A stretch of 64,000 bases of DNA from assembly GCA_963811105.1 (NCBI GenBank), contig CAWEPZ010000011.1, positions 288,001 to 352,000 on the forward strand, read 5' to 3'. Below, piece after piece: positions 23,922 to 49,724 of this stretch. Made by a program: the position numbers and the translations under genes. The notes under the pieces were generated by a model that worked only from the letters and a program-made list of their open reading frames with translations, was not told the DNA's origin and made no database searches. Position 1 is the stretch's first letter. Every line of letters starts with the position of its first letter. This stretch comes from Candidatus Bathyarchaeota archaeon (GTDB taxonomy: Archaea; Thermoproteota; Bathyarchaeia; Bathyarchaeales; Bathycorpusculaceae).

Positions 23922-24346
23922 TTATGCTGGGTAGAAAACTCCAGTCATATAGATGTAGTACAAATCGGCAGGATGCCAGGCCTGCACAAGGCTCCCAATG
24001 GCAAAGAAACTGTAGCCATTTCCTGCAGTTACAGGAACTACTGCTTGTACAGACATAGGCCAATAAGTTGTTGTTTCATCTCCGATTGGTCCAGCAAATG
24101 TGTAAGAAAGGTTGGGATAAGCATTACTTGTCGTCCCAAGACCTAAACCTGCAATCGTGGAATCTCCACTCAGATCAGCCATAGCATTAACACTGAGTAC
24201 AACATAACCATTTGATGGCGCGGTTAAGGTCACGTTGGCAACAGTTTTGTAATCTGTGGATAGACTAATAAAACTATGAGCATAAGTGTCGTTATACATA
24301 ACTACGACGCCTGATGATCCAGTTGGTCCTGCTGGTCCTCGCGGTC
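23922..24346 (-). CDS. C-terminal half of a collagen-like surface protein interrupted by the integrative element
   Basis: Starts with PRGPAGPTG, then a beta-rich domain; joins in frame with 50253..49715. Confidence 0.88.
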
Positions 24347-29431: not shown

Positions 29432-29803
29432 TTGGCTATTATTAAAAGAATTAAGGTGTTGGCAACTGTTTTATCAGTATTTCTTCTTGCAGGTAGCTCA
29501 CTAATTTTTGCGGATGCTAACTTCACTTCTCCAACTTATCTGCCAGTTTCGTTTTCAAGACCCATGGTTTCAGGGCACAAACACTCCATGTTTCGCTTGT
29601 TCCTCCAAATCTCTCAACCAGCACCTGATTACTCCTCTTTGCAGTTCCTATTTGGAACTGAGGTTGCAGTAACCACAACTGACGGTATGATTGACGGCAA
29701 CTGGCTCCTAGATACATTTGAGGCTTCAAGAGATAACCCGTACCCTAACTGGGACTGCACTATCATGCTGATAAAAAGGAGCAAAAACATAGTTTATGGC
29801 TAA
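29432..29803 (+). pseudogene. secreted protein N-terminus truncated at the IS110 fragment
   Basis: Signal peptide; runs into IS110 sequence. Confidence 0.5.
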
Positions 29804-30248
29804 GTGGGGAAATCAAATAGTCAACACTGGGAGTCATTTGGCGTCTTGGGCGGGTTTGGCGCCATCGGTTTATCAGTCTGCGGGCGTGTTTGTTACGGGT
29901 CATATTACGAAGAAGGGTTCTAAGTGGCTTAGGCATGTTATGGTTGAAGTGGCTCATGTTGCCGTGAGGGTTAGGAGTTCGCGGTTGCGGGCGTTTTATT
30001 TGAGGAAGAAGGCTAGGAAGGGTGAGAAGATTGCTGTTGTGGCTGTTGCTAGGAAGATGTTGACGGTTATTTGGCATTTGCTGAAGGAAGGTGAGATGTA
30101 TGTTGATGACGTGTTTGGGAAGAAGGTCAAAGGAGTGAAGGTTGCGTATTGTGGGCATGTTTCTTTAGATGAGATGGCTAGGATTTTGCGTGAGGCTGGA
30201 TTCATGGTGTTGGGTGGTTCGGACGGCTGAAGAAGAAAAGACTTTTCA
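29796..30248 (+). mobile_element. IS110-family transposase C-terminal fragment
   Basis: LASWAGLAPSVYQSAG..GHITKKGSKWLR..AVVAVARKML. Confidence 0.88.
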
Positions 30249-30286: not shown

Positions 30287-32914
30287 CTAGCACGTTCCAT
30301 ACCAAACGAAAATGCTTGTATCAGAATACATTAGTATCGATTGCCCATTGTAATACTGGTTGTAGTTTTCATCGATAATTGCGACTAGACTCTCATCATA
30401 CCAATAGTACGGGTTATAGGTAGGGTCATCCACCGTAACCGTGTGGTAGCCTGGCGTCACATGAATAAGCATTGTCGCTGTTCCAGCCCAATTGCCATCA
30501 ACATAAACATTAGGAGTTAATGTGTTGTAAGAGTAGCCGTCGATTGCCTCCACATATAGTATGCAGGTAGTAACTTCAGAATAGCAAGCCGTCAACGTAC
30601 CACCGGTCCAAAGCGGAATATTAGCTGGATCCCTACACCATTGATCACCACTATATTCGAAGTATTCAAATTGATAACCGCTGATAGAAGGCACACTTAC
30701 GGTATACTCTTGTTGCGTCTGTATGTTGAAACAATTAAAATAATAACTGCCCGTTCCGACTTGTTCGCTGTTTATGGTGAATTCAGGAGATAGCTGATTG
30801 TTACTGTTATCTAAATCTACAGCGTTTAGATTAACGTATGGCTGGTAAAGCTCTATAAGGCTGTCGCCAAAAACCTGCATGCTATTCTTGGTATCAATCT
30901 CATGTCCTGGAAAACCCTGAGGATACCAGCCTGGATTATTGAAAGGGTACTGCATCGACTGATCTCCAGGCCACCACAAGTTATAACCCTGGCAGAGTAT
31001 GCTCGACGTGTAAGTTGTGCTGAAGATTGATATTGACGCCTGATTCAATGAATCACGGATGTCATACCCATTCACAAGCGCGTTGTAGTAGAAGTCTTGT
31101 ATGAAATTTTTCATTGACGGAGTCCACTGCTCTTCAAAGGTCTGTGTGTCGTTGCCTATCCAGGGTGAAAATCCATAGAAACTTATGAAGCACTGTCCAC
31201 TACTATCTGGAGAATTATATCCATCAGTGTTGCTTACGCCGTTGTGCATCCAAGCGTCACAAATGGGAGTTATGCCAACAAGACCGCTACTGGTTTCCGC
31301 CTGACAGCAGACCCATAGAAGTTCAAAGGTGTACTTATTATTCGTAACTGACTGATTGATGTAAGAGGCAGTTATGTAATTACCCGTATTGTCAACATAA
31401 CCATTACCATAGCCAATCATGTGTCCGTATTGAAATACTGTACAATGGTCGTAAGTTGCCGCGTCAGAAGAAGCATTACCCCCTACGTTTGCGACGGTAG
31501 TGTCACCCTCAACATTATTGAACGTCGTGTAATCGGAGGCTGCAAAATCGTTGTCTAATTGCCCCTGCACCCAATATGCTGCATCCTTTTCCTCTTGTGT
31601 CTGAGGAGGCGACCCGTTTCCGCCATCCAGTGAACCATAGATTCTGGCTGAGCTATTAGGAAACACTGAATCTGCCTTGACTGCGGATATTGCAGCGCTT
31701 AAAATGATAACACTGCAGAGCAATAATCCCCATAGCATGGGGTTGAATAGTTTTTTTCCTCCTGCAAGTTTCGAGATTCTTTTTTTGCTAACAAACAAAG
31801 CCCCTACACACAGAATCGCTACAATCACAATGGGCGCTGTTAACATCATTGAGCTCTGACTCGCGTCTGTGGCAACACCCGGAATCACTGTTTGACTTGC
31901 CGTTGGCTGAGTAGCTTTTGCAATTCCACTGTCGGCAGTCATTAACTCTGTTGAGCCGACTTGGCCAGTGTCAGCCCACACCGTTACCGCTATTCCTGAC
32001 ACATCGCCAGGGTAGAACTTGTCAAAGCCTAAGGGAACCCACCATGAAGGATACAGGTTAAAAGGGCTACCATTGCGTGCATTGCTGACGTCAGGACAGT
32101 TAACATAACTCAGCGTCATATCACTTAATGACTCTGGAGCGATTTGGAAGCCAGCAAGTGACACTGCAGAAGTAACGTTTCCACTAACTTGGTATGTGTA
32201 ATTCTGCGCTGCAGCTAACGCTGTTGTAATAGCTTGTTGTCGAGGAACTGTTGGTACGCCAATAATATTGTAGAGTGGCCAGTTATTTATGAAGCAGTTC
32301 AGCTGCCCCTGATAGTAGCTTAATTCCACGTTTTTTGATGGAGCCGTGATGCCGTTTGCTTCTGTGTACGTCCACACATAATCGATTGTCGCTTCATTAG
32401 AATTTAATACCTCAAGTGTCATGCTTCCGGTGGCTTTAGTAATGTTAGCGCTACCAGTGACACCATTCAATGTTGAAGCAAGCGTGCCGTAGAGGGAATT
32501 TCTAGTGCAAGTTTGATAATTCTCAAGAAAATTCTTCGCCATCATGGCAGTGCCACTGGCAGGTTGCGCCAATGCAAGTATTCCTCTGTATTCGCTGAGG
32601 TATAGCAAGTTTAAAGTGTTGTTCACGAAAGTTGAGCTTACTCTGACTGAGCTTTGATTTGAAATTAGGGTAAAATCGATTTGATTTTGCGGTAGACCTT
32701 TGTCTTGGGTGTTGGTTTGCGAGTTTACCTGAGTTGAGTAGGCGCTGGGGTTTATGCCCAAGACACTGCTCAGTATCATGTTTGTGTGGTCTTGACTGTT
32801 TGAGATGGTTGCGGCACGTGCGCTTGGCATAAGCAAGAAAGTAGTGGATGAAACGAGAAGGACAGCGACTGCAATTGTCGTTAGGAAAAACTTTTGTTTG
32901 GAGATTTTAATCAT
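30287..32914 (-). CDS. fusion: PepSY/YcdB-like domain - TM - internal signal peptide - peptidase-like domain - beta-sandwich tail
   Basis: N half matches 38712 and 41977 (LYPSWWV..VTVWADTGQV); C half matches 36604 and 43204 (FQYGH, LWVC, DGYNSPD..CFISF, MQVFGD); start at ATG 32914 after GGAGG. Confidence 0.8.
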   Translation of the reverse strand: MIKISKQKFFLTTIAVAVLLVSSTTFLLMPSARAATISNSQDHTNMILSSVLGINPSAYSTQVNSQTNTQDKGLPQNQIDFTLISNQSSVRVSSTFVNNTLNLLYLSEYRGILALAQPASGTAMMAKNFLENYQTCTRNSLYGTLASTLNGVTGSANITKATGSMTLEVLNSNEATIDYVWTYTEANGITAPSKNVELSYYQGQLNCFINNWPLYNIIGVPTVPRQQAITTALAAAQNYTYQVSGNVTSAVSLAGFQIAPESLSDMTLSYVNCPDVSNARNGSPFNLYPSWWVPLGFDKFYPGDVSGIAVTVWADTGQVGSTELMTADSGIAKATQPTASQTVIPGVATDASQSSMMLTAPIVIVAILCVGALFVSKKRISKLAGGKKLFNPMLWGLLLCSVIILSAAISAVKADSVFPNSSARIYGSLDGGNGSPPQTQEEKDAAYWVQGQLDNDFAASDYTTFNNVEGDTTVANVGGNASSDAATYDHCTVFQYGHMIGYGNGYVDNTGNYITASYINQSVTNNKYTFELLWVCCQAETSSGLVGITPICDAWMHNGVSNTDGYNSPDSSGQCFISFYGFSPWIGNDTQTFEEQWTPSMKNFIQDFYYNALVNGYDIRDSLNQASISIFSTTYTSSILCQGYNLWWPGDQSMQYPFNNPGWYPQGFPGHEIDTKNSMQVFGDSLIELYQPYVNLNAVDLDNSNNQLSPEFTINSEQVGTGSYYFNCFNIQTQQEYTVSVPSISGYQFEYFEYSGDQWCRDPANIPLWTGGTLTACYSEVTTCILYVEAIDGYSYNTLTPNVYVDGNWAGTATMLIHVTPGYHTVTVDDPTYNPYYWYDESLVAIIDENYNQYYNGQSILMYSDTSIFVWYGTC

Positions 32915-33173
32915 TCTATTTACCTCCATTAATTTAGGTGGAAACCTCCTTGTTTTCCACTCGCCCTTTAATTAGGACTAGGCGGTCACTTATCTCCAAC
33001 GCAGTTTAGCGATGGCCTTGCATCCGCTTGTTTAACCTTTAGAACGAGTAAGCCTTTAAGGTTTGTTGTCTTAAAGCTTACGATTTACTGAAGTCCTGAT
33101 ATAAGACTACATTTCTTTTTGACAAGTTCATCAATAAAACGAAAGTTGTTAGCTAAACCTTTAGTTTTTAAGA

Positions 33174-34565
33174 TTATAGTCTCAAAAGTTTGGTCTTTTT
33201 ACCTTTGGTTTTTTGGCTACAGAATATTATCGCTGTGGATGTTGCTATGAATACAATAATAGTGACAATGATTAATGGATACTCTGGAATTGGCTTTGAC
33301 GCGAAAACAATTGAAACTTGATGCGTACTAAAGTGAATTGTGTACCAGACGTAGTAGTTAGCGGCATCTTGAGTGTAACCTTGATTTAGCGCTGTTTGAT
33401 TATCAGCGTATACTATTGGCGGTGACTCAGAGAGCACAGCTGTCTTCGGAATAGTAATGTTACAAAAACCCGACGTGCCTTCCTGCCCCGTTAAACTAAA
33501 CGTAAGACTGGTTTCCTTGCCAGCTTGGTTAATCAGCGCAACGTTGGACATCTGGTTACTGGTGATTGTTCCGCTGAGGTCAAGCGTGACTTCTAAGCCG
33601 GCGTTGGTTGAGGCTTGGATGGCGGTTTGGATTAAGGTCGCCGTTTGAATAGGCGCTGCCTGGGGGTTAGGCAGAGTTAGGAAAGGTGTGAATGTAACCT
33701 TAGCATCAGGTCGGTTATGTGTGGTTATGGTATTTTTTATCGCTTGGGGGTCGGTTGTTCCCCACCAATTGTACGTGACGGTAACGTAAACTTGTCCGTA
33801 CATGCCGTACTCGGTGGAGCTTATGATATTATTGTTGTGCAATAAAGCTGGGCTGGCTGTAACGTAAAGCCCGATCGCGTTGTTTGTAACTGTGTTGTTT
33901 AGAATACTTAGGCTGTTACTCAAAACCTGAATGCCTATTCCAAAATTGTTAATGATGTTATTAGAAATCGTTGTGTTCCCATTAGATTCTGCCATAATTC
34001 CAATGGTTCCGCTGCCAAATTCGTCGCTGACTGTTTCTTGCCCAGCACTATTAATAATGTTGGATGAAATTATTCCTGAGCCCGCATCATCTATTGCGAT
34101 GCCATTATTAATGCCATTAAGGTTGATGATATTGTTTGTGAGGGTTGAATTTCCTAAAATAAAAACAACATTTGTGCTTCCTATTATCGTGAAACCTGCG
34201 ATTATCACGTTATCAGAATCTACTGCTATTCCAGAAGTCCAGCCAAAGGGAGAGTACGTCTCAGTTGTCACAATAATTGTATCTTGGCAATTTTCCCCTA
34301 TCAGCGATACTGGTTTATCAATTACCAAACTCGCAGGAGGAAGGTTCCTATGCATGCGTTCTGTGGTATTGTAGTTTCCGGATCTGACGTACACTGTGTC
34401 TCCGGCACTTGCATTATCTATAGCCGCTTGAATAGTTCGAAAATCGTCTGGAACAATGATTGTTCTTGAAGAGGCAGCTTTTACAGCGATTGGCTGAAGA
34501 GCCACTGAAGAGGTCAAGAATACAGCGGCAAAAAACAAAACCAAAATCTTATTCTTGCGTCTCAT
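33174..34565 (-). CDS. NosD/pectin-lyase-like beta-helix surface protein
   Basis: IIVPDDFRTIQAAIDNASAGDTVYVRSG, NN-I repeats, YNWWG, PEY + C-terminal TM. Confidence 0.88.
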   Translation of the reverse strand: MRRKNKILVLFFAAVFLTSSVALQPIAVKAASSRTIIVPDDFRTIQAAIDNASAGDTVYVRSGNYNTTERMHRNLPPASLVIDKPVSLIGENCQDTIIVTTETYSPFGWTSGIAVDSDNVIIAGFTIIGSTNVVFILGNSTLTNNIINLNGINNGIAIDDAGSGIISSNIINSAGQETVSDEFGSGTIGIMAESNGNTTISNNIINNFGIGIQVLSNSLSILNNTVTNNAIGLYVTASPALLHNNNIISSTEYGMYGQVYVTVTYNWWGTTDPQAIKNTITTHNRPDAKVTFTPFLTLPNPQAAPIQTATLIQTAIQASTNAGLEVTLDLSGTITSNQMSNVALINQAGKETSLTFSLTGQEGTSGFCNITIPKTAVLSESPPIVYADNQTALNQGYTQDAANYYVWYTIHFSTHQVSIVFASKPIPEYPLIIVTIIVFIATSTAIIFCSQKTKGKKTKLLRL

Positions 34566-34613
34566 GATTGCAAGAGCGAATGATTTTAAATAAAAGACTT
34601 TTGGTCAAAAAAC

Positions 34614-36286
34614 GAGACCGTGTAAAAAATCAACATAATGACCGGTTGAAAGCTTGAGGAATTACCATTTTCTCTTCTTGATTTTACTCTTCTCTTACTC
34701 TTATTTCTTAACAAGCGCACAAATTAGCGCTTCGACTCCAAGAATGTTCAAAACTCTCCTCAAATTATAAGACAACAAAAGCAACCCGACCTCTCCACTA
34801 ACCTTCCTAAGACCTTTAAGCAACAAATACGGCGCACCAAACGCCCTCTTCAAAGTTCCAAACGTATGCTCAACCACTTTTTTGCGCTCATCCATAACCT
34901 CAGGATGCAACTTCATACGCTCTCTCAAATCATCCACAACCTCCTCATGCACCCAACGCCAAATCAATCGCCCACGCTTATTGCTTGTGCATTTAGTCAT
35001 AAAAAACTGGCAAGAAGAACAAACACCATTTTTGCACTTGTAAATTCGCCTATCCATCCCATCCTGAAACGTACAGCAGTGAAAGTAAAGACGTTGACCA
35101 GCAGGGCAAACATACACATCAGCATCCTTGTCATAGCGAAATTTATCAGCAGTAAACTCCGGCGACACAATACTTCCACCGCTTCCTGATCTCTTTACCG
35201 CAACATAAGGAGTAACCCCACTGTCGACACATTGCTTGATTTGCAAAAAATCAAAATAACCCTTATCAGAAATACAATCAATCTGCTCAACCCCAAGCGT
35301 TTCTTTAGCACTTATCGCTACACCGCTGAGCTGATTTAGATCTGAAGCCTCATTAGTCACCAAATAATTAACGATAAGATGGTTTTTAGAATCCACTGCT
35401 GCCTGCATGTTATAGCAAGACTCTACTCTGCCATGATTCATCATCTGCCGACAATCAGGGTCAGTCAGGGCAACCTCTGTTTGGCCGCTCTTTTCCATCT
35501 TGTCAAGGATTTCTTCAGATTTCTGCTTTTTCTCAAGCAAAGCTGCAAGCTTGTCTACTTTAAAAGCCTTAGCCTCCTCGCCTAACTCGCCGTTGGATTG
35601 CTGCTCGTCAGATGCTTCTTGCTTATCTGCCGCATCCAACTCTTCAAGGTAATGTGTTACTGATTTTTCCATGACCTTTATTCTCTTTGCCAGTGCTCTT
35701 TGGGTGAAGGCTTTATCGTTGGAGTTGACTGCCCGCAGTTTGGTGCCATCTACGGTTACTTGTTTTGCTCCATAGAGACTGAGATCTTTTAAGAAAGCTA
35801 CAAAATCCTTAAACAACGCACCTATGGCTGCTGGGTTGTCTTTTCTAAAATCCGCTATAGTTTTAAAATCAGGCGTTAGGCCTTTGAGTAGCCAGATGCA
35901 TTCAAAGTTTGTTTTGCATTCGCGTTCTAGTTTTCTGCTTGATCGGATGTGGTTTAGGCCTCCGTATAGATAGAGTTTGCAGAGGTCTTTTGGGTTGTAA
36001 GATGGTCTTCCAAGTTCCTGAGGTGTTGAGTGTGTGAAGCCTAATTTTTTCATGTCAAGCGTGTTTACGTATGCATCTATGAACCTGACTGGATTATCCG
36101 TTTCTACGTATTCTTCTATAGTTTTGGGCAGTAGGAACGTTTGGCTTCTGGATAAGCCTTCCACATAGCTGTTGGTTTCAATGTCCATTTGTCTCACCTT
36201 TGAGTCTTTGTCAGCCATTGCTATGTGTCTAGATTTAAGGTTAACGGCATTCTAGGCGAGTTAGGGAAGACTTTTCACACGGTCTC
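34614..36286 (-). mobile_element. complete IS1182-family element, 4-bp TSD AAAC
   Basis: TIRs GAGACCGTGTAAAAA / TTTTCACACGGTCTC; AAAC at 34610-34613 and 36287-36290. Confidence 0.92.
34701..36218 (-). CDS. IS1182-family transposase
   Basis: GRPSYNP, SSRKLE, PDFKTIADFRK, VDGTK, TDPDCR, YNMQ, SDKGY, VEHTFGTLK. Confidence 0.96.
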   Translation of the reverse strand: MADKDSKVRQMDIETNSYVEGLSRSQTFLLPKTIEEYVETDNPVRFIDAYVNTLDMKKLGFTHSTPQELGRPSYNPKDLCKLYLYGGLNHIRSSRKLERECKTNFECIWLLKGLTPDFKTIADFRKDNPAAIGALFKDFVAFLKDLSLYGAKQVTVDGTKLRAVNSNDKAFTQRALAKRIKVMEKSVTHYLEELDAADKQEASDEQQSNGELGEEAKAFKVDKLAALLEKKQKSEEILDKMEKSGQTEVALTDPDCRQMMNHGRVESCYNMQAAVDSKNHLIVNYLVTNEASDLNQLSGVAISAKETLGVEQIDCISDKGYFDFLQIKQCVDSGVTPYVAVKRSGSGGSIVSPEFTADKFRYDKDADVYVCPAGQRLYFHCCTFQDGMDRRIYKCKNGVCSSCQFFMTKCTSNKRGRLIWRWVHEEVVDDLRERMKLHPEVMDERKKVVEHTFGTLKRAFGAPYLLLKGLRKVSGEVGLLLLSYNLRRVLNILGVEALICALVKK

Positions 36287-36324
36287 AAACCTTGACTAAA
36301 CTTAGCTCTGATTAGTCAATTTTT

Positions 36325-36425
36325 GAGACCATGTAAAAAATCACTAAACAACCATTAGATGCTTGAAAAATCACCCAATGCTCTTATGATTTCACTTTTT
36401 CTCTTACTCTTTATTTCTTAACATG
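36325..36425 (-). mobile_element. orphan IS1182 end remnant
   Basis: GAGACCATGTAAAAAATCA...TCTCTTACTCTTTATTTCTTAACA closely matches 34614-34712. Confidence 0.8.
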
Positions 36426-36511
36426 AGCCCCGATTGGCAAAAGCCTTCACATGGAAAGTTGACATGAAAGTTAGATAAAGTACTTTAGCAAGACTAATGT
36501 AATTCTAGTTG

Positions 36512-38694
36512 GTGAGGCCGACGTCGAAACTGGCTTCTGCTATTGCTTTCACAACCTTGCTGTTAGCGCTAGTTTTGGGCACGACAGCATTGCCTTCCAG
36601 GGTTTGATTGGCGCTCAAGGTGGTCTTCTATTTGAGAATTCAACCGGACTTCTATATGGAGGAGGCAACACATGGCTTAAGTCGGTTGCTATAGGCGATG
36701 TGGACAGCGATAGTGTAACAGAGATAGTAACTGCAGGCTTCTATAGTGATGGAATTCGCCTTAATTCCATTGTATGCGTTTGGACGGGATCAACGCTAAG
36801 TTTAGAGAGAAGTTATTCATGGTATAATATTTCTAACACAGCGATTAATTCTGTAGCCTTAGGCGACGTAGATAGCGACGGTGACACCGAAATCGTCACA
36901 GGAGGCTACTACAATGACGGCACTAGAGACAATGCACAGGTTCTCGTACTAGATGGTAGTTCCCTGGCAGTTGAGAACTCGATGCAATGGTTCTGGCAAT
37001 CAGATGCTAGAGTTGATTCTGTTGCGATCGGAGACGTTGACAGCGATAGTTACGCAGAGATTGTCACAGAAGGATTTACCAATGATTTCTATAGAGATAG
37101 TGCTCAGGTGGTTGTGTTAACAGGAAGTAATCCTGAGGTTGTGAAAAGCATCAAAACTTGGTATTGGTATAGTAATACATGTATCAATTCAGTCGCGATT
37201 GGAGACGTGGACGGCGACTATGCCCAAGAGGTCGTAACTGGAGGTCAATATTTTGACGGCATCAGGCTTGTTGCACAGGTAGTTGTGTTGTCAGGTGCAG
37301 ATGTTACTAATGTGGAGGCATATAATTCTTGGTATTGGGATTATGATACTTATGTTTCTGGCTTATCGATTGCTGATGTTGATTCCGATTATGCACTAGA
37401 AGTGGTTACTGGAGGCGCTTATAGGGCTAATGGTTTGTATCATTCTCAAGTGGTTGTTTGGAGCGGTTACAATATTCAGAACGTTGAAAGTCTGAAATGT
37501 TGGTTCTGGGGTTCAACGACCTTGGTCTATGACATCGCTGTGGCAAACATAGATTCAAATCCAGACATCGAGGTTGTTACCTCTGGCATGTACTTTGATG
37601 GATTACGCTATCAATCTCAGGTTGTGATATTGAGAGGAGAAAACGTAGATAATATCAAGGATCATTTTTATTGGTTTACAAGTGGTGATACAGAAGCTGT
37701 TTCGGTGGCTGCAGGTGACATTGATTCGGATGGGACGGTAGAGTTTGTAACGAGCGGAAACTATGATAGTTTTTCGACGAGTTATGGTCAAGTGACAGTT
37801 TGGAGCAGACCACCAGTAGCCAGCCTAATCTGGGGCACCTCAAACTATCCTAATGCTACCGATGAGGCGAGTGCTTCAAGTTCGATTTGCCAAGGGATCT
37901 ACCAGCTTTTCGTCGACACTGGCAGGTACGATTTCCACCCAAACTACCAAGGAACCCAAACGCAACGCGCCCAAGTTCTAGGCAACATCTCTCGTTGCGA
38001 TAATCAAGCAAATTTTGAGTTCACAACTGTTTTCTATAAGGGACATACGGGCAGGTATTTCCAGTCAGAGTACATGGGTTATCCCGGAAACGCTACTTGG
38101 TGTCCTCTTTGTAACAACGACCACTACGCAATCTATGACTGCGAGGGTGGAAGCACTAACTATGCAGGTTCAACAGGCGATGGGATTCTCGACAATGCCG
38201 TCTACAACAGCATGGTAGACTTCAAGCACGGTTTTGTTTTCTTGTGGACGTGTTTCTTATCGAATAATAAGGGCGGCCTTGATGATGGTCATGAGTACGG
38301 TATGCCCTATGCGTGGATGGGGTCAATCATGAACAGCATGAACGACAACGGCTACGCATACCCTGACAGCACAGACCGTTGCCTAATTTGCTTCCAAAAT
38401 GATTCAATGCCTTTCGTAAATGCTACCCATAAGATTGCCGGTTGGAACTACGGGCATTTCGCATACAAATTTTATGAGTATCTATTATATTATCACTACT
38501 CAATAAAGGGTGCTCTTGACTTTGCAGCTGTTGACACGTGCGTTGAAAAAGGTGGGACAACTTCAGCCCAAAGTTTCGCGGATACCGAGTTTTACAAAGG
38601 TTATGACTACACGTGGGTTCTCAACGGCGTGACAATTCATGATAATTCTTCTATGAGAGTGTTTGGAGACGGAAACGCAAAGATTCCAAGTTAA
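36512..38694 (+). CDS. secreted FG-GAP/VCBS-repeat + peptidase-like domain protein (signal peptide frameshifted near 36590)
   Basis: About 7 S(V/L)A(I/L)GDVDxD..EIVTGG repeats; C domain FYKGH, FVFLWTC, GMPYAW, MRVFGD; main ORF is 36604..38694. Confidence 0.8.
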
Positions 38695-38711
38695 AACAAG
38701 GTGAAAAATGA

Positions 38712-39818
38712 ATGAAACATTTATCAAAAAAAACTGTTTTCTCATTGGTTCTGCTGGTGATCCTCGCTATCCAATTTCCAAGAATGGTGCATTTCGCCCC
38801 CGCGGAATCTTCAGGTATTGAAAAAGTCAACGTTTTCTTGAAAGACGTTGTAGGAATAGACACCGAGAAATACCAAATTGGGGGAGTAACCGACATCACC
38901 GACAACCCCAAAGAATACCCCGGAATAGTCCGAGAAGGCGGCGAATACACCCTAACAACTGCCGGAAGCACACTGGACATACTGTTTCAGTTTCATAACC
39001 AAACCCTTTCCGCATGCCTTATGCGAGTTATGGAGGGCTCTCCGATTTACCTTCATCCACCTTCCAGTAATCTTCTCACATCCGTCGACACTTTCCTCCA
39101 GAAGTTTCAACAATTCGCGGACAGGGGTAGTTTGGAAGACCAACGCGCGCTTCTGGCCAAGATTAAAGACTTGAATAGCTCAACTCAGACGGTGGGCAAC
39201 CTAAAGCTTTCCATAAACAACATGTCAGACCACATTAACTTCCACTGGACTTACTGCGCAAATGGCGTAGATTACATTGGATTCGGAATGAGTTATCTTC
39301 GAGACGGGACATTTTTCAGTTTTGTGGATGATCGGGGCACATACTTAATTGGCGGGACTGAAGTGAACGTTTCAAAGGAATCGGCAATAAGTATTGCTTT
39401 GAGTGCAGCCAGGAACATGTCACTTCCGTATGCGGTCATCGAATCGCCCGCGGATGAAACACTGATAACATGGAGTCGTGAGCCATTGACGGTCTATCCC
39501 TGCTGGGATGTAACTTTCTATCTCAACATGACCAAGATGGAGGGTCCAAGTCATGTGCAAGTTTTGATCTTCGCGGACACTGGCGAAGTAATTGATTGTT
39601 ACACACTCGCGTCTGGGGGAGGCTCTCCAGTCTTCAATGTAGAGACGTCAGACAACTCAACGACAACCACGTCATCTTCCGGAAACAACACAACAGCAGC
39701 TTCAGCGCTAAACCCAGCGGTGATTGTCGCATGTGCCGTGGTCTTCGTCATTATAGCCTCTGCCGCATTGACCATTGTGAAGAAAGGAAAAACCAAAGAA
39801 CCCGGCAACAAAACTTAG
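38712..39818 (+). CDS. membrane-anchored PepSY/YcdB-like protein
   Basis: Signal peptide, FLKDVVGID, VSKESAISIA, SREPLTVYPCW, IFADTGEV, S/T linker, C-terminal TM. Confidence 0.75.
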   Translation: MKHLSKKTVFSLVLLVILAIQFPRMVHFAPAESSGIEKVNVFLKDVVGIDTEKYQIGGVTDITDNPKEYPGIVREGGEYTLTTAGSTLDILFQFHNQTLSACLMRVMEGSPIYLHPPSSNLLTSVDTFLQKFQQFADRGSLEDQRALLAKIKDLNSSTQTVGNLKLSINNMSDHINFHWTYCANGVDYIGFGMSYLRDGTFFSFVDDRGTYLIGGTEVNVSKESAISIALSAARNMSLPYAVIESPADETLITWSREPLTVYPCWDVTFYLNMTKMEGPSHVQVLIFADTGEVIDCYTLASGGGSPVFNVETSDNSTTTTSSSGNNTTAASALNPAVIVACAVVFVIIASAALTIVKKGKTKEPGNKT

Positions 39819-40018
39819 TCTCTAGAAATAAGCCCGCCAAGCGCGCGGAAGCTCTGCAAGCTATTTCGCCAACACTAAAAAACACTAAAGAGTGTGAAGA
39901 ACTATGGTTATTTTTCGCCACTTTTTTGTTGGTGTATTAATGCTAGTATCGTTAATGCAATATTAAGACATAAAAGGCGTTAGCATACTACAGGAGTGGT
40001 GTATTAGGTTGACTGCTT

Positions 40019-40477
40019 TTGAGTAAGCAAGACTTTAAGCTCTTGGAAGACGCTAAACCAGGGGACCTCATTTCAGTCGAGTGGTGCGATGCATCCACTG
40101 GAAAAAACAGTATGAACGGCGGTGCCGTAGACGTTCCAGTGCAGAGCTGGGGCATCTTTCTAGGCGTAATAGCAGGACGCGTTCAACACATCATTTTAGC
40201 CCAGAACAGCTTCTCCTTCACAGAAACAGTCTTCGACCTAGATTATACTTCTATCCCGGTGGGGTGGACAGTCGGAGTTAAAGTTCTGGTTCGCGCAAGC
40301 GTAAACAAGGAAATTGCTGACTGCATGATTCATAGCTTCGCCAAAAGCAGTTCAGGACAGTCTCGTTCAAGCATTGTCTCATCTAATCTTCTAAACCCAC
40401 GTTCCCCAAGGATATTCATGTACCATCGAATGCAAAGAGTAAGAATGAGGATGAGGATGCCTTGGCAGAAAATTTAA
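40019..40477 (+). CDS. hypothetical protein (element-associated, PGDLxxVEWCDAS type)
   Basis: 152-aa ORF overlapping the next gene; beta-rich. Confidence 0.7.
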   Translation: MSKQDFKLLEDAKPGDLISVEWCDASTGKNSMNGGAVDVPVQSWGIFLGVIAGRVQHIILAQNSFSFTETVFDLDYTSIPVGWTVGVKVLVRASVNKEIADCMIHSFAKSSSGQSRSSIVSSNLLNPRSPRIFMYHRMQRVRMRMRMPWQKI

Positions 40478-40716
40478 TCAAACGTGCCCTCACTCGACGC
40501 CGACCAGCTATACGTGGCCGCACAACCTCTGAAGTTGAATTACCGGACGAACGCTTAGTTCTAGGTGTAGAATTTGCGATTGCAATGGCCATTTGCCTCT
40601 CGTTCCTCGAGGTTGCCCACATGGCTTTATTGGGCAGCTGGAACAGCGAAATTTTCGCAACCATCTCAGGCCTAGTCGGAATCATAATCGGGCTATTTGT
40701 GGGGAAAAAACATTGA
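40462..40716 (+). CDS. small two-TM protein
   Basis: Two hydrophobic helices; 3' end duplicated near 46650. Confidence 0.7.
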   Translation: MAENLIKRALTRRRPAIRGRTTSEVELPDERLVLGVEFAIAMAICLSFLEVAHMALLGSWNSEIFATISGLVGIIIGLFVGKKH

Positions 40717-40795
40717 TGCTTACCAGGTGGAATCAAGCTTAATGGTGAGGGGTAACCCTTGGACAGTTGAGGATGAAAAGCAACTTCGACAGCTC
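40670..40795 (+). repeat. dispersed repeat copy 1 (other copy 46650-46826)
   Basis: GGCTATTTGTGGGGAAAAAACATTGA and CCTTGGACAGTT.AGGATGAAA shared; encodes MVRGNPWTVEDEKQLRQL fragment. Confidence 0.8.
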
Positions 40796-41145
40796 CACAC
40801 ATAGGACAATCCTTTGCCTTCTTGTTTCCTGTAATTATCATTCCTAAATTGCAATTGTAACAGAGACGTATATGGCAATCTTTGCAGCAGAAGGTTGCTC
40901 CAACTTTGCCACATGCATCACACGTTTTCCACTAACACTCGTTGCACAATAAAGGTCAGACTTTCAACAGGTATAAACGAAGCCGCCAAGACTACAATGT
41001 GGAAACCACGCTTATAGACAGTATCAACTACTTGATAGCACTATTTTCAGCAGGATCATTTCCTTTAACCATCAATAGTAACAAAAATATGAGTCAAAAG
41101 CTAATGTTTGATTTTTTAGCACCATAACTAATGCAGAATTAAATT

Positions 41146-41325
41146 TTAATCTATTTTTCCAACTTTCAGTATTTTGGGTCCTGGGAAGTGTGTTTCTGGT
41201 TTCTGCTCCTCACTGTCAAGCAGTATTTGGTCGTTTTCGCGCCATCTTAAATCGTCAGCTAACTCTTTTGGGATGGTTATTATTAGGCTATTTCCTGCCT
41301 TTCTTAATTTGACGATTTTCTTCAT
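41146..41325 (-). CDS. AbrB/MazE/SpoVT-type DNA-binding protein, 59 aa (not in ORF track)
   Basis: MKKIVKLRKAGNSLIITIPKELADDLRWRENDQI. Confidence 0.85.
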   Translation of the reverse strand: MKKIVKLRKAGNSLIITIPKELADDLRWRENDQILLDSEEQKPETHFPGPKILKVGKID

Positions 41326-41486
41326 TTCGCTTTTCCTCGAGGTGTAGGTGACTTTATGCGTTTATCTCGAATGCATGTGTTTTGCGCATGTTTTTAACCA
41401 GTATTTCGTATTTTTATATATGATTGGGTGTTGTCCAGTATCATCAGGTATATACAGATAAGTGTGCGTAATGGGTTAAATGAACC

Positions 41487-41697
41487 TGGTCAACTGAGAA
41501 AGACTCTACCGATATTCTGAAAGGGACCGCTCTTGATGTTTATCGCCTGTTACTAAAGGCAAGAAAACCTCTTGGAATCAAAGAAATCCAGCGGGCGTTG
41601 AATTTAAGTAGTCCTTCAGTGGCTCAGCATCACTTCTCCTGGCTAGAAAGTGTAGGACTTGTAAAGCATGAGTCAGGCTCTTATGTTGTCAATAATG
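41487..41697 (+). pseudogene. HTH regulator truncated by an IS remnant
   Basis: LKGTALDVYRLLLKARKPLGIKEIQRALNLSSPSVAQHHFSWLESVGLV; no start codon; collides with IS sequence. Confidence 0.75.
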
Positions 41698-41952
41698 TAG
41701 GCATAGCTTGTTACGTGGGATGTTCTTTTGAATGTGAAGAGGTATTTTTGCCAAGTGATGTGGCTTTGTTTGAGTGGGTGGTTGCAGTATAGGCACAGCT
41801 TTATCTCTGGGTTAAAATATACTTGTTTTGCCCCGCTGTAGTCTTTCGCTTTCTTCATTGATTCGTCGTCAATATAGCGTTAGATTACAGCTGGGCTTAA
41901 AAGCAAAAATTGGTTGCTTTTCTTGATCGGCTAGTTAGTTATTGACATATGG
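41698..41952 (-). mobile_element. truncated relative of the 14397..16263 IS (left end + transposase N-terminus)
   Basis: MKKAKDYSGAKQVYFNPEIKLC versus MKTAKDYSGAKSLYFKPELKLC; TIR CCATATGTCAATAAC; flanked by A8 (41953-41960). Confidence 0.88.
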
Positions 41953-41976
41953 AAAAAAAAGCAAAAAGGAAAGTTA

Positions 41977-43182
41977 TTAATGTCTTTGGCGGATTTTTCG
42001 GCGTAACGCTACTGGAACACACACTGCAAGGATTACTGCGACAATGAAAGCTATCAAAAACACAAGACCTAAAGAGTTAGCATCTGTGGACGATGTATCA
42101 CTGGATGCTGTCGTTAGATCACCTAAATAACCGAAGGGCGATGCGTAAATTACTTCTGATGTGTCTCCCCAAACTCCGACTTGAATGCCCTCATCGCCTG
42201 CAAAAGTTTGTTTGAAATAGAAGTGGAACTGCCAATATGGATACAACGTTAACGGGTCTCGAGATATTTTGCTGGGAAAGTTGGCGCTAGAATTGCTATA
42301 GGGCAACATGTTAAACCGCACATCATAACGTGCATTCGATAGAGCAGGAGTTTTGACTGTTATGTTCTGGCCAGCTGAATTAGTTACGTCTAGAGTGACC
42401 TTTTGTGCTGCGTCTAAAGCTATCTTTGTTGCCTGCTGAGAAGAAACTGCACTTAACCCAGCAACTTTGTAAAGGCTCCATGTGTCCTGGAATGATACCA
42501 AGTTATTATTGTTGAAGTCCATTTCCACTCTTTTCCAGTTCATAACTATGCCGTCTTCGGTGTAAATCCATTGAAGTCTAGTTCTGTTGCCGTTTTGAGA
42601 GGACTGAAAGTTTGTGTTACATGTCGTTATGTTGGTTGATGATTCGATATTTACGCTGTTTAGAACGTTTTTCATTCTTGTAAGAAATGAGGTGTCAGAA
42701 GTGGCGGATTGTTGCGATATAAACGTTGCATATCTTGTTAACAGGTCATTTGCTTGGTTTGTTAAATCAGTCCCGGACGAACCTAAGTAAATATAGCTGT
42801 CATTGTTTCCAATAGAATTGATATTTACAATTGCCAGTTGTCCATTGTAAAAGATGCTCATGATGTCCAGCGTGCCCTTGCCAGATTTAAAGTAGTAACT
42901 CGGTGATTCCATGTTAACACCTATATCTTCGTTGGGGTTGAAGAGTGCACCTTTTGAAGGTTGAACTGTACCAGTTGACGGTGTATTATTCCTTAATTGA
43001 TAAGAAGGCGTTGTTAGTGAATATTTTGTTAGGTCAAGGCCGGCAACGTTGGATAAAAAATTCGTGGTTTGGTTAAGAGCGCTGGATTGAGTTTCATCTG
43101 TTGAGGAGGTAGCGTTAGCGGTTGTTACAGCAAGAGAAATGATGATTAAAGTGGTTATGAAATATCTTAAGGTATTTTTCAT
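41977..43182 (-). CDS. membrane-anchored PepSY/YcdB-like protein
   Basis: FLSNVAGLDLTKY, VSSQQATKIA, SRDPLTLYPYW, VGVWGDTSEV, C-terminal TM; paralog of 38712. Confidence 0.75.
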   Translation of the reverse strand: MKNTLRYFITTLIIISLAVTTANATSSTDETQSSALNQTTNFLSNVAGLDLTKYSLTTPSYQLRNNTPSTGTVQPSKGALFNPNEDIGVNMESPSYYFKSGKGTLDIMSIFYNGQLAIVNINSIGNNDSYIYLGSSGTDLTNQANDLLTRYATFISQQSATSDTSFLTRMKNVLNSVNIESSTNITTCNTNFQSSQNGNRTRLQWIYTEDGIVMNWKRVEMDFNNNNLVSFQDTWSLYKVAGLSAVSSQQATKIALDAAQKVTLDVTNSAGQNITVKTPALSNARYDVRFNMLPYSNSSANFPSKISRDPLTLYPYWQFHFYFKQTFAGDEGIQVGVWGDTSEVIYASPFGYLGDLTTASSDTSSTDANSLGLVFLIAFIVAVILAVCVPVALRRKIRQRH

Positions 43183-43203
43183 ATTTTTTCCCTCCTAATT
43201 TCT

Positions 43204-44220
43204 TTAAGCTGGAGAAATGTACGAGTTACCGTATACATGCATGGTTGTGTACCACCAATAGCCACCTTTGTCTACCCAATGTCCAACATATAGCGGAGTT
43301 GAGTCAAAGTTACAGCCAAAACATACTTGTGACGCTTGATCGAGACTGTCATGCACGCTCTGTGGATTATTCCAATCGTAATATCCAAGTCCTTTATAGT
43401 AAAATGAAGATACGAAGAGCCAAGCTGGTGCCCCAGAATTTGGCAGTTCGTCTACCATACGAGGCGATGGTCCTTCAAATCCAATGTAGCAATAGCTACC
43501 CGAACCGCCATAGTAACCGTATAGATCCATATCGGAGCGGCCAGTCCAAGCTAATGGCATTCCAACCTCGCCGTAATCACTGAAGAAACCGTATAAAGTA
43601 TTGAAATTCGCAGGAGTAAAAGTTGGTTCTGGATTAGTAGTAGAATTGATTGTTTGAATTATTCCGCTGACATTATCAAAGTCCCCAGATGTATCCATCC
43701 AGTATCTTCCGCCGTTTGCACAGGTCCAGATGAAATCGAAATTCTCGCGACTTGGTAGGCCACCCTGTTCGGTTGCATCGTTGTACACCCAATCGTCGCG
43801 AATGTCACCGGTTTGGCTGTCAACGTGACCATAAAACCAATAATGGCCAAAGGGTGCTGGAGGACCATACCCACTGTTGTGGAAGTCTCCGACCCACCAG
43901 TTTGTTACGTAATCAAGTCCGTCGTAATTCGTGCATTGCCAACTGAGCATGTTGGATACATTACCCTCGTTTGTGTAGTCCCCATATGCATCCATGGGTA
44001 TAGCGGCATAGGGATATTGCCCACTGTAATAATCAACGATCATGTAGCAGACATCGGATTCCATACTTTGTTCGTCAGTATCGATAGGAGGATCTCGATC
44101 ATCTATGTGCCCGTACTGTATTGCTAAACCATAAGCTCTTACTGAGGGAATGATGAGGGTTGCTGTTGAAAGAAAAAGCACAGCTAAGAGCGAAAAAACG
44201 CAAAGGTTTTCCTTTTTCAT
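43204..44220 (-). CDS. secreted peptidase-like domain protein
   Basis: Start MKKENL (ATG 44220, GGTGG SD); signal peptide; FIWTC, GMPLAWTG, CYIGF, SLDQAS, MHVYGN. Confidence 0.75.
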   Translation of the reverse strand: MKKENLCVFSLLAVLFLSTATLIIPSVRAYGLAIQYGHIDDRDPPIDTDEQSMESDVCYMIVDYYSGQYPYAAIPMDAYGDYTNEGNVSNMLSWQCTNYDGLDYVTNWWVGDFHNSGYGPPAPFGHYWFYGHVDSQTGDIRDDWVYNDATEQGGLPSRENFDFIWTCANGGRYWMDTSGDFDNVSGIIQTINSTTNPEPTFTPANFNTLYGFFSDYGEVGMPLAWTGRSDMDLYGYYGGSGSYCYIGFEGPSPRMVDELPNSGAPAWLFVSSFYYKGLGYYDWNNPQSVHDSLDQASQVCFGCNFDSTPLYVGHWVDKGGYWWYTTMHVYGNSYISPA

Positions 44221-44727
44221 TTTTCCACCAAATTTAGTATTTAGGTCTATTCTTATTAAGTTTGTGTTAAATATCGAAATTTCTGGCTCGTTTTCCATTG
44301 TTAATATTTTAATACTAACCTTTAATTGGTAAACAGATAATTTTATTCATTGATTCATTAGGTTTGATTCCTAAATTACTGAATATCACCTCACTAAATT
44401 CCTTATAACTTTGCCGCTCTACACGGAAGACCACGCTCTACTGAGTTATTCATTGGGTTAATCAAAAGAATTTTTTAGAACCGTGGAGTTGTTATTTCTC
44501 AATTGAAAACCTAAAAACTCAACGAAATACTAGCTAATCAAACTATGGAGCTTTTGGTACAATCGAAAATTCGTTTCTTTTGGAGGAAAAAGGTTTACGA
44601 TGCTTTTCCTGAAGCTTCGAATATATCGAATAAAAACGTTTAGCCTTATCATAAAACCAGTCAAGAAACTTTGATTAAACTACACAAATAATCTTGACGA
44701 AAAAACTTTTATTCTAAAACAGCTCCA

Positions 44728-45906
44728 TTGACTTTTATGCGAAGCCATAACAAGAACATAACGGTATTGACTATTATACTTTTTTTGACTTGTTTGGCGG
44801 TGTGGTCTGCCATGCCTGAACCAACTTCGGGGCAAGAGGCAGTTGATAACTCTTGGACTGTGTTGGCGCCGTTGCCCAAAGACCACCTTTCTTTTGCATT
44901 AGGCACAGTGCTGGATGGGCAAATATATCTTATTGGTTATGATATAGCCGAGCGTTATGACCCCGGCTCCAATAAATGGACTGCAATAACGCCTATGCCA
45001 CAAAAAGTCGGAGGAGCTGTTGTCGCTTGCCAAAACAAAATATACGTTATAGGTGGCATAACCCAAGTCTATGACCCAATAACCAATTCATGGGCAAACA
45101 AAACTTCCAGTTCTCCGTATACAACAGGTGCTACAGCTGAGGTCGTCGGAGACAAAATTTATGTCATAAGTGGAGGAACAGCGGGGTACGTCGTTACGAA
45201 CTCTGACATCACCTACGTTTATGACCCAGAGACAGATTCCTGGTCCACGATGGCACCTATTCCAACGCCCGTCCAAAATTATGCGTCTGCAGTTTTAAAC
45301 CATAAAATCTACATCTTCGGAGGCGCCCATGACCAAAAGTCTGTAGACGACCTTAAAGCCTCTAACTTAGTTCAAATTTTTGACCCTGAAACCAACCACT
45401 GGACCGCTGGTCCGCCTCTTCCATTTGGCGTTACCGGTGCGGAAGCCTGTGCAACTTTAGGCATCAATGCAACTGAGCAGATTTACGTTATGGGAGGGTT
45501 TTCGTACACTTATCTGGTGGGAACCAGCCATGGGGATGTCAAACCAAACTTGTATAATCAAGTTTATAACCCTGAAACTCGCACCTGGTCTTTGGAGGCT
45601 TCTCTGCCTGATACCCAATGGAGCTTTTCGTTAGTTAATGCCAATGACATCCTCTATGCTGTAGGAGGCTATGATAAAGGAACCATTACTCTTAATAACG
45701 GGCAGAAAACAGGTGGGCAAACAACTCAAAGATATATTCCATTAGGCTATACCGGCAATGTATATCCAATTTCAACACCAACCAAAGCGGCGGCGCTATA
45801 TTTTTCGCCTTACATTATAGGTGGCATTGCCGTTGTGACCGCCACAGTGCTTGTACTTGCTGCTTTGCTGCTTTTTAGACTATATGAAAGAAGAGTGAGA
45901 AAGTAA
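44728..45906 (+). CDS. Kelch-repeat beta-propeller surface protein
   Basis: Repeated KIYVIGG...YDP.T.SW; signal peptide and C-terminal TM. Confidence 0.92.
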   Translation: MTFMRSHNKNITVLTIILFLTCLAVWSAMPEPTSGQEAVDNSWTVLAPLPKDHLSFALGTVLDGQIYLIGYDIAERYDPGSNKWTAITPMPQKVGGAVVACQNKIYVIGGITQVYDPITNSWANKTSSSPYTTGATAEVVGDKIYVISGGTAGYVVTNSDITYVYDPETDSWSTMAPIPTPVQNYASAVLNHKIYIFGGAHDQKSVDDLKASNLVQIFDPETNHWTAGPPLPFGVTGAEACATLGINATEQIYVMGGFSYTYLVGTSHGDVKPNLYNQVYNPETRTWSLEASLPDTQWSFSLVNANDILYAVGGYDKGTITLNNGQKTGGQTTQRYIPLGYTGNVYPISTPTKAAALYFSPYIIGGIAVVTATVLVLAALLLFRLYERRVRK

Positions 45907-46269: not shown

Positions 46270-46645
46270 ACTTTACCATGAATTCCTTCTCGTAAGTCCA
46301 AATAGCCCAAACAACATTCACTTTAACTTACGAGCAACAATCTTAATCGCATCCCGACTATTCCCCTTCGTAACACAAGCCTCCCTGAACACCTGCGCAA
46401 GATGGCCTTCAGGACAAAACCTCACATGAGACCAAGCAGACTCAATAAAAATATACTTAAGCCAAGTATCACCCCTAGCTTCCTTTCCAGCAGAAGAATG
46501 CTCACCAGACTGACTAACCATAGGAACCAACCCAGTATAATGCGCAAGCTTCTCGGGATTGCTAAAACGTTTAATGTCACAAATCTTTGCATACAACGTC
46601 AAAGCAGACAAAAAACCGAATCCGGGAATAGACATAAGCAGCAAA
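46270..46645 (-). mobile_element. IS110-family transposase C-terminal pseudogene
   Basis: LLMSIPGFG..RFSNPEKLAHYTGLVP.VSQSG..VARKL, frameshift into VNVVWAIWTYEKEF. Confidence 0.85.
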
Positions 46646-46772
46646 ACAGGCTTAACCGGAATTATTATCAGGCTATTTGTGGGGAAAAAACATTGAACCT
46701 TAACAGGTGGAACAGAATCATCAGTGAAGAAGCAACCGCCCAAGACATCTGCAGCAGGACCGAAAGAAGTTA

Positions 46773-47064
46773 ATGGCGAAGAGTAAACCTTGGACAGTTA
46801 AGGATGAAAGGCAGCTTCGAGAGCTCTTAACAGAAAAAAAAATCTATACGTAGTATTGCAAAGATTATGTGCAAAACCCTTATTGCTGTACGGTTGAAAG
46901 CGTCTCGCTTAGGCTTAGAAGATGATGATGGGAGTGAAAAAAACACGCCATCATCATCTACCTTTGACAAGTTAGTTTTGCCAATTGAGTCCTGCAGACG
47001 AAGCTACTTATTTTGGAAGAAATTGCCTAACTTGGCAGTATTGCTTGAGTACAACGTGAATTAA
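46773..47064 (+). pseudogene. HTH (Myb/SANT-like KPWT..E) protein frameshifted in an A9 run
   Basis: MAKSKPWTVKDERQLRELLTEKK, then +1 frame SIRSIAKIMCKTLIAVRLKASRLGL. Confidence 0.7.
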
Positions 47065-47771: not shown

Positions 47772-48238
47772 TGGTTGAAGGGGAGCGAACAGGTGCCCTA
47801 GCCAGCATTACGTCTCTTAGCATGTTTGGCAATCAACCGGTAAACAATATTACTGGCAAGTCGGTTTCAGTTCTACCTGCCGGCGCCGCCTCGCAAATTC
47901 CCATCTATGTAAAATACAAAGATCACGCATTCTTCAAGAATCTCTCCGACCCTGTTGCAGCTCCTGTTATCCGTGAGACCATCGGCTGGGTGAAAGAAGA
48001 AAATGAGGAGCTTTTCCTAATTGAGTTTGACCGTTCTGTTCCAAGAAGAGGCAAAAACGTAAACGGGATCATTATTTTGAAGAATTGCATCATAGAAGCC
48101 TACCCGTTGCCACTACAAAAAAAATCGGAATACCACTTAAATTTAACGAAAACTACGTCTAGGCTTGAGTTGGCGTTCCGGCCATCGGAGCGAAAAACTC
48201 ATGGAGCTAAATTCTCCAGGAAAAACCAGACATGCTAG
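47771..48238 (+). CDS. hypothetical protein coupled to the integrase
   Basis: YVKYKDH..RETIGW..FDRS core; overlaps integrase start. Confidence 0.65.
   Translation: MVEGERTGALASITSLSMFGNQPVNNITGKSVSVLPAGAASQIPIYVKYKDHAFFKNLSDPVAAPVIRETIGWVKEENEELFLIEFDRSVPRRGKNVNGIIILKNCIIEAYPLPLQKKSEYHLNLTKTTSRLELAFRPSERKTHGAKFSRKNQTC

Positions 48239-49714: not shown

Positions 49715-49724
<10 letters not shown>
49679..49724. repeat. attR: right inverted arm + 10-bp core
   Basis: AAAAAACAGTACTTTCTCAAGTCTGAACACTCAAGACC overlapping CCTCGCGGTC. Confidence 0.88.

Follow-up and report, generated by a model that had tools for sequence, protein, structure and literature searches.

A predicted exported caspase-fold protease and its PepSY-like membrane partner in three modules of a Bathyarchaeota archaeon

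The question raised by positions 30287-44220 of a 64,000-nucleotide stretch of Candidatus Bathyarchaeota archaeon (assembly GCA_963811105.1, contig CAWEPZ010000011.1, positions 288,001 to 352,000 of the forward strand; the whole stretch is called the window below) is what two divergent proteins do together, given that they occur side by side or fused in three successive modules. The original prediction, made from the sequence alone, took component A for an exported cysteine protease of clan CD and component B for a PepSY-like anchored inhibitor, chaperone or immunity protein, and the open reading frames (ORFs) of all three modules are present where it placed them. The analysis reported here, which leans on structure prediction, makes it moderately probable that A is an exported clan CD cysteine protease and that B is its cognate membrane-tethered chaperone-inhibitor, a prodomain supplied in trans.

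Component A is about 290 amino acids (aa) long. The copy in the fused gene (A1) and the 36604 copy (A2) match in pairwise BLASTP (E 3e-7), the 43204 copy (A3) matches the others weakly (3e-4 to 4e-3), and a profile of 108 family sequences recovers all three at E <= 4e-61. The motifs by which they were first recognized align across the three regions, although GMPxAW is degenerate in the fused copy. An AlphaFold2 model of the A2 catalytic domain built from the 108 sequences (predicted local distance difference test, pLDDT, 89.7; predicted template modelling score, pTM, 0.91) bears out the suspected caspase-hemoglobinase fold. All Foldseek matches listed are caspase-family structures (including MALT1 and caspases), and VIA comparison ranks SAVED-CHAT first (Z 13.7, root-mean-square deviation (rmsd) 3.4, 186 residues aligned), with a metacaspase (Z 13.2), the gingipain RgpB (Z 12.9) and legumains as further clan CD matches and GPI transamidase among the fold neighbours. 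The proposed GH...C dyad lies after the expected core strands of the A2 model, His81 (38044-38046, plus strand) following strand 73-79 and Cys150 (38251-38253) following strand 142-148. As modelled and aligned, A1 (His at about 31421-31423 and Cys at about 31307-31309, minus strand; H85 and C123 of the aligned piece) and A2 have the clan CD layout, in which a conserved His and then a Cys stand at core strand ends. In a set of 109 near-complete A sequences, which includes the three window copies and one duplicate, all 109 keep the catalytic Cys; at the His column, His stands in 94, Asp in 14 and Glu in 1. The 43204 copy, already singled out for having WVGD where the others have GH, belongs to the Asp subgroup: the catalytic His is absent, Asp138 stands at its column and Cys193 is kept (364-aa numbering). 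A3 and the rest of the Asp subgroup probably keep the partnership as binders that are weak or inactive.

Searches of Pfam, NCBIfam, PADLOC and PDB sequences assigned no family to the A domain. The only PADLOC and NCBIfam matches were weak ones to B3 (one far below the NCBIfam cut-off, one in PADLOC at E 0.005), and no Peptidase_C25 or Propeptide_C25 match appeared in Pfam searches of the window proteins and their relatives, with 25 families shown for B. The claim that A is secreted is supported by a hydrophobic leader in 49 of the 54 stand-alone copies that have a short N-terminus, but the A2 ORF at 36604 has no in-frame signal peptide. The accessory domains around A are as variable as had been supposed, and include FG-GAP, DUF2341, PKD, Ig, InlB-B, PEGA, Kelch and LamG.

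The PepSY-like fold of component B is likewise upheld by its model (pLDDT 94 for B2), for which the best Foldseek matches were YpeB (C-terminal domain; E 7e-7) and the vibriolysin propeptide (E 1.6e-5), with the fungalysin propeptide also listed (E 2.7e-3). In VIA the whole B domain aligns with YpeB (Z 10.1, rmsd 8.5, 207 aligned) and its C-terminal domain with 4exr (Z 9.4, rmsd 1.6, 65 aligned) and YpmB (Z 7.9); other structural matches are M4 and M36 propeptides (3nqy/3nqz, 4k90) and PepSY lipoproteins. B2 missed the Pfam PepSY (PF03413) cut-off (15.9 bits versus 24), PepSY was found at E <= 0.1 in 4 of 118 B members, and DUF4901 was also sub-threshold; the B regions of the three copies match one another at E 1e-12 to 1e-19 (BLASTP). 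A C-terminal transmembrane (TM) helix is present on 67 of 70 stand-alone B proteins. One fusion (L032:6076-9579) has two tandem B domains ahead of A. The B ectodomain is also found in genes that join it to an ArsR-type helix-turn-helix (HTH) and a TM segment, called HTH-TM-B below, in this genome (C1:65315-66625) and in relatives (L210-L212, L214-L219). These make up at least nine of the fetched relative regions (9 of 20 orphan-B regions, which were chosen partly for resembling that type), some of them from genomes without an A match. The conserved HTH-TM-B protein is a candidate one-component membrane transcription factor in which a tail-less form of the partner fold would be the sensor.

That A and B should occur together in other genomes was also supported by a neighbourhood survey. 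The sample was taken among the 150 matches listed and comprised 30 loci and 100 further regions, with the weakest matches left out; it gave 136 A rows, or 132 A genes after removal of the three window copies and one duplicate. In 126 of these 132 non-window genes, B lies within 600 nt of A or is fused to it, the arrangements being 62 A-then-B operons, 53 B-A fusions and 11 B-then-A pairs. Of the six A genes without B, four run up against a contig end and another is a fragment of 128 aa, which leaves L085 as the single truly solitary A. The distances among A and among B proteins are correlated (Mantel r 0.81, against 0.10 for the best of 200 shuffles), as is expected because the genes are linked. 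In 214 of 244 fusions, B and A are separated by two hydrophobic segments according to a hydropathy rule, and the second segment mostly ends in a V-x-A-like motif in the 25 fusions inspected, features from which we infer a polyprotein cut by signal peptidase. In the linker-less fusions L024 and L125, the tail Gly of B is joined directly to the mature N-terminus of A, at the signal-peptide end of stand-alone A.

Partnership is further supported by the predicted complex of one cognate pair, A2-B2, in which B is placed over the active site. The complex scored an ipSAE of 0.93 against 0.02 for the best control; at least 89% of contacts were common to the runs, partner pLDDT was at least 90, and the interface comprised approximately 200 contacts. 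The mark applied to this score is reached by 116 of 157 solved pairs and 2 of 215 mismatched pairs. The predicted interface includes A residues 80-83, 148-151 and 200-203 and B residues 269-277, the latter forming a tail after the last PepSY strand, and B touches both the catalytic His and the catalytic Cys of A.

The tail was compared over 248 paired rows (4 skipped), counting from the Trp of the WADTGEV motif of B. Position 17 (Gly303 in B2, at 39618-39620 on the plus strand) is Gly in 62 of the 84 pairs whose A has Trp or Tyr at Cys-2 (Trp148 in A2, at 38245-38247) and in 0 of the 160 pairs of the clade with Asn, Ser, Asp or Gly at Cys-2, where Leu, Met, Ile and Val dominate. According to PMC4357240, the Cys-2 residue lines S1 in caspase-7 and MALT1; position 17 is read as lying at or near S1, and its pairing with Cys-2 is only suggestive of an S1/P1 match. 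Nine HTH-TM-B genes end at positions 13-16, before position 17, and have no A in their regions of 4-6 kb.

A parallel arrangement surrounds DUF6345 (PF19872), an uncharacterised family mentioned by one paper in the literature searched. By protein-language features in the Atlas DUF6345 is nearest to A2 (0.96, with recognition below its mark), and the two have the same GH...C layout. None of the window A copies reached the DUF6345 Pfam gathering cut-off (1 of 108 relatives matched, E 0.0048), and hhalign of A against DUF6345 gave non-significant probabilities of 0.4 and 1.6 with alignments of 6 and 47 sequences; A was therefore not filed in DUF6345, membership having drawn no support from the Pfam or the profile-profile tests. 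By hhalign (probability 90, E 1.7e-6) the partner of DUF6345 is a homologue of B; it also matches DUF4901 and is YcdB/DUF4901-like. It occurs as a downstream gene in 5 of 8 DUF6345 loci, with one TM-linked fusion like that of the window. Of 31 long DUF6345 proteins, 28 carry it, one of them labelled Chloroflexia. The loci with DUF6345 and partner (L179-L183, L186, L188-L196; proteins P0261-P0291) come from archaea and include at least one bacterium-labelled protein. From these comparisons, the pairing of a caspase fold with a PepSY-like protein appears in two distant families.

Taken as a protease with its prodomain in trans, the module could operate as follows. Both A and B would be exported by the Sec route, with B held by its C-terminal TM helix; in the fusions, the internal signal-like segment would probably let signal peptidase free A, giving a 1:1 stoichiometry. 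In the predicted complex, A is clasped by the beta-sheets of B while the short tail that follows the final PepSY strand covers the His/Cys site, which it presumably occupies as a substrate would, with position 17, in most cases Gly, at S1 or close to it. The bound tail would keep A silent at the membrane of its own cell and would probably aid its folding. Less firmly, cleavage at position 17 or loss of B might release or activate A, and freed A might be directed to outside proteins by its FG-GAP, PKD, Ig and DUF2341 domains. Such a protease might serve feeding, surface remodelling or conflict.

Several observations weigh against this reading, or against parts of it. Gly is missing from position 17 in 22 of the 84 Trp/Tyr-type pairs, including that of B1 in the window (Ser), and is kept in the His-to-Asp subgroup of A. 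The switch at Cys-2 and position 17 is one change on a FastTree tree, for which reason repeated co-evolution of the two positions was dropped. At the start of helix 1, A has Glu in 97 of 109 sequences; in MALT1 and gingipain R an S1 Asp for Arg stands at the helix-1 position (PMC4357240), so that the Glu would fit a specificity for Arg or Lys rather than Gly. The DUF6345 partners are without this tail, which is thus not needed in the wider design, and L085 has no B within about 8 kb on either side. The calibration of the complex score holds only roughly, as custom alignments were used, and the prediction may echo solved prodomain complexes. Mean-field coupling, run on 248 paired A-B sequences with an effective number of 169, yielded no inter-chain signal, the top 25 couplings falling at the modelled interface in 4% of cases against a background of 4.4%, a result that is uninformative at that depth.

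A bolder scheme, speculative and on balance unlikely, would make the tail a lock-and-key release switch. A would cut or transpeptidate its own B tail through matched S1 and P1 residues (Trp-Gly in the one branch and Asn/Ser-Leu/Met in the second) and shed an armed protease from the membrane; hundreds of allelic pairs, orphan B and ArsR-TM-B would form a self/non-self network of surface conflict and sensing in Bathyarchaeia, and together with DUF6345 would constitute an undescribed cross-domain superfamily of clan CD proteases under the control of PepSY-type partners. Another proposal is that B is chiefly the dedicated substrate of A, which would cut or transpeptidate after position 17 to free the complex, adhesive domains included, from the membrane or link it to an acceptor and would have no outside substrate. 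In its favour, the tail covers the active site in the predicted complex, position 17 switches with the Cys-2 residue, and it both precedes a low-complexity stalk and TM helix and is the point at which B and A meet in the direct fusions L024 and L125. The fold neighbours of A also include enzymes that transpeptidate, namely legumain ligases and GPI transamidase. However, Gly persists in the His-to-Asp subgroup, where cutting is unlikely, such a tail is lacking from DUF6345 partners and HTH-TM-B, and a protease with a single partner leaves 924 clusters at 50% identity unexplained, so that we consider this proposal improbable.

No better placed is a toxin-immunity system, in which A would attack surface proteins of competitors, B would confer allele-specific immunity and orphan B would guard against foreign A. 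In its favour, the A family (924 representatives at 50% identity, with relatives labelled Bathyarchaeia) is patchy and multi-copy: a 3-sequence profile finds it in 60 of the 201 genomes of the family to which this genome belongs, with as many as 9 matches in one genome. Across the phylum it is found in 27 of 401 genomes, mostly of its own order. B is wider, in 86 of 201 family genomes (with a profile deeper than that of A), and this genome has nine B-like matches against 3 A, the latter limited to the window copies; an orphan B with Gly tail and TM helix intact exists (L229). The modules are carried here on an integrated element and elsewhere adjoin phage capsid genes on an IMG/VR contig (L187), and in 17 of 136 A rows the gene is interrupted by a stop or frameshift (L003, L006, L020, L034, L053, L070, L082, L094, L112 and L145 among them). 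Amber read-through of the internal stops was considered and is unlikely, the 10 stops inspected being 6 TAG, 2 TAA and 2 TGA. Polymorphic toxins with Tox-Caspase (surveyed in PMC3482391) resemble A-B in their caspase-like domain, adjacent partner gene, patchy spread and orphan partners. Their arrangement is nevertheless the opposite of that in A, where a constant catalytic domain is flanked on both sides by accessory domains that vary, with no variable C-terminal toxin tip and no trafficking or RHS parts seen. Further, no delivery machinery was seen near A, whose neighbours are mostly housekeeping genes and other surface proteins; many orphan B genes are ArsR-HTH fusions (in the partly preselected regions noted above); covalent B-A fusions are common (53 of 132); and PepSY has 0 mentions in the first 300,000 of the 357,715 characters of the survey.

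Still less probable is a role for B in anchoring or activating A, rather than inhibiting it, with the active protease displayed at the surface for peptide feeding. The large predicted interface, the TM anchor and the adhesive accessory domains suit such a display, secreted Kelch or beta-helix neighbours occur in 47 of 101 regions, and sediment archaea reportedly degrade peptides. However, in the model it is the catalytic residues that B covers, and the structures nearest to B are domains that inhibit or chaperone. It is very improbable that the system is one of signalling, in which A (own or foreign) would bind or cut the B ectodomain of the HTH-TM-B transcription factor, because those genes, although present in this genome and in at least nine relative regions, show no linkage to A, and their products are without the tail by which B would engage its active site.

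Read as a chaperone-inhibitor and its enzyme, the A-B pair is a protease-plus-prodomain theme in a new family, with partial likenesses to several known systems. In Bacillus, SleB and YpeB are, like A and B, a co-operonic exported hydrolase and a membrane-bound partner of PepSY repeats that embraces the catalytic domain, and YpeB is proposed to hold SleB as a chaperone-inhibitor (10.64898/2026.06.01.729290); SleB, however, is a peptidoglycan lytic enzyme and not a clan CD protease. A further difference is that B has its anchor at the C-terminal end and is modelled directly over the catalytic residues; the A-B pair is also multi-copy, highly diverged and often fused. The FTP-PepSY prodomains of M4 (vibriolysin/LasB) and M36 (fungalysin) enzymes have a similar sheet-plus-helix fold and are chaperone-inhibitors of secreted proteases, and the two direct B-A fusions copy the prepro layout of these enzymes. 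Those prodomains act in cis on zinc metalloproteases, whereas B is mostly a separate gene or lies two hydrophobic segments away from A, and has a TM anchor. The gingipains RgpB and Kgp (C25) resemble A in being secreted clan CD proteases with adhesin-type accessory domains, and, as presumed for the B tail, the RgpB prodomain inserts a substrate-like residue into S1 (PMC4357240); A-B differs in matching neither Peptidase_C25 nor Propeptide_C25 and in having a PepSY-like partner encoded in trans. The DUF6345 system has the same operon and TM-linked fusion arrangements and a partner homologous to B, albeit one without the Gly tail.

No report of the A family or of the A-B pair was found in the literature, in a search for which subscription journals were mostly outside the scope and supplements were not covered. 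PepSY-type keepers are known for metalloproteases and for one cell-wall hydrolase, and none was found reported for a clan CD protease. To an archaeal group that ranks with the most abundant of the uncultured ones, the family would add a large unannotated set of exported proteins with the caspase fold. The A and B genes are overlooked entirely by standard annotation. For DUF6345 and its partner, the proposal supplies a function that can be tested.

Within the window, the third copy is one ORF, as had been stated, although it is not a simple domain fusion and is better described as a two-protein polyprotein with B first and A second. It spans 30287-32929 on the minus strand (880 aa, likely start 32914) and encodes a signal peptide, the YpeB/PepSY-like B1 ectodomain (31910-32812), a TM helix with a KKR/KK loop and an internal signal-peptide-like segment ending in AVKA, after which cleavage may occur (31673-31846), the A1 clan CD domain (about 30830-31675, as aligned with A2 and A3) and a beta-sandwich tail with a weak PEGA match. 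On the plus strand, the A2 ORF (36604-38694) consists of FG-GAP repeats (about 36604-37803) and the clan CD domain (37804-38691), and is preceded by a signal-peptide-like leader (36509-36607) that is out of frame with it owing to a frameshift at a G run near 36600. In run X1, one contig (depth 3.5) carries an additional G after 36599 that brings leader and ORF into one frame, but at 36532 it is short of a base present in run X7. The frameshift may mark a pseudogene or an assembly error. No RNA data set containing these sequences was listed, which has no bearing on expression. B2 follows at 38712-39818 (plus strand), with a signal peptide, YpeB/PepSY-like ectodomain, tail, Ser/Thr stalk and C-terminal TM helix. 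In its leader, the base at 38753 is absent in runs X1 and X3, which belong to two studies; by frame count, an ATG at 38708 would open the same B2 ORF without it. On the minus strand, B3 (41977-43182) has the layout of B2, with Gly at tail position 17, and A3 (43204-44298, likely start 44220) consists of a signal peptide and a clan CD-type domain (A region 43207-44133).

Carriage by a mobile element, also part of the original prediction, applies to the window copies but not to the family in general. All three A-B copies lie within a 25.4-kb integrated element (24347-49714) bounded by 10-bp direct repeats with imperfect inverted arms inside them, the left CCTCGCGGTC at 24337-24346 and the right at 49715-49724; the repeat occurs exactly twice in the window. 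A tyrosine integrase (48232-49674, plus strand; Phage_integrase E 2.8e-7) lies at the right end. The element splits a minus-strand gene for a collagen-repeat surface protein, with the N half extending to 50253 and the C half at 23922-24346, so that the insertion target is this gene and not a tRNA gene; among 30 searched relatives 3 match the gene, and two have a close homolog that is uninterrupted. Elsewhere, A regions are mostly without element genes (an integrase homolog in 2 of 100 fetched, two other small element genes in one region each, the remaining element genes in no region). In the IMG/VR contig (L187:1-2649), a B-A fusion and a Kelch gene directly adjoin phage capsid and other head-type genes. 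With integrase homologs in so few regions and one IMG/VR locus with a clade-specific pattern, the family as general mobile-element cargo was not borne out.

The remaining cargo of the element includes a PolX-like gene, winged HTH genes and a 338-aa possible Rep, and several contigs of this genome contain further homologs of its core genes, many of these homologs being degraded. The modules are flanked by secreted beta-helix and Kelch proteins with a C-terminal TM helix (33174-34565 and 44728-45906); similar proteins, those counted above near A in other regions, form a single-linkage cluster. A transposase gene (DUF772 and DDE; 34701-36218) and two IS110 remnants (29796-30230 and 46318-46743) also lie inside the element, and the segments 34601-34728 and 36312-36438 contain common repeats that resemble insertion sequence ends. 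Finally, two blocks of 57-66 nt with 86% identity, approximately 6 kb apart (40667-40795 and 46647-46826), suggest a nested or duplicated sub-element.

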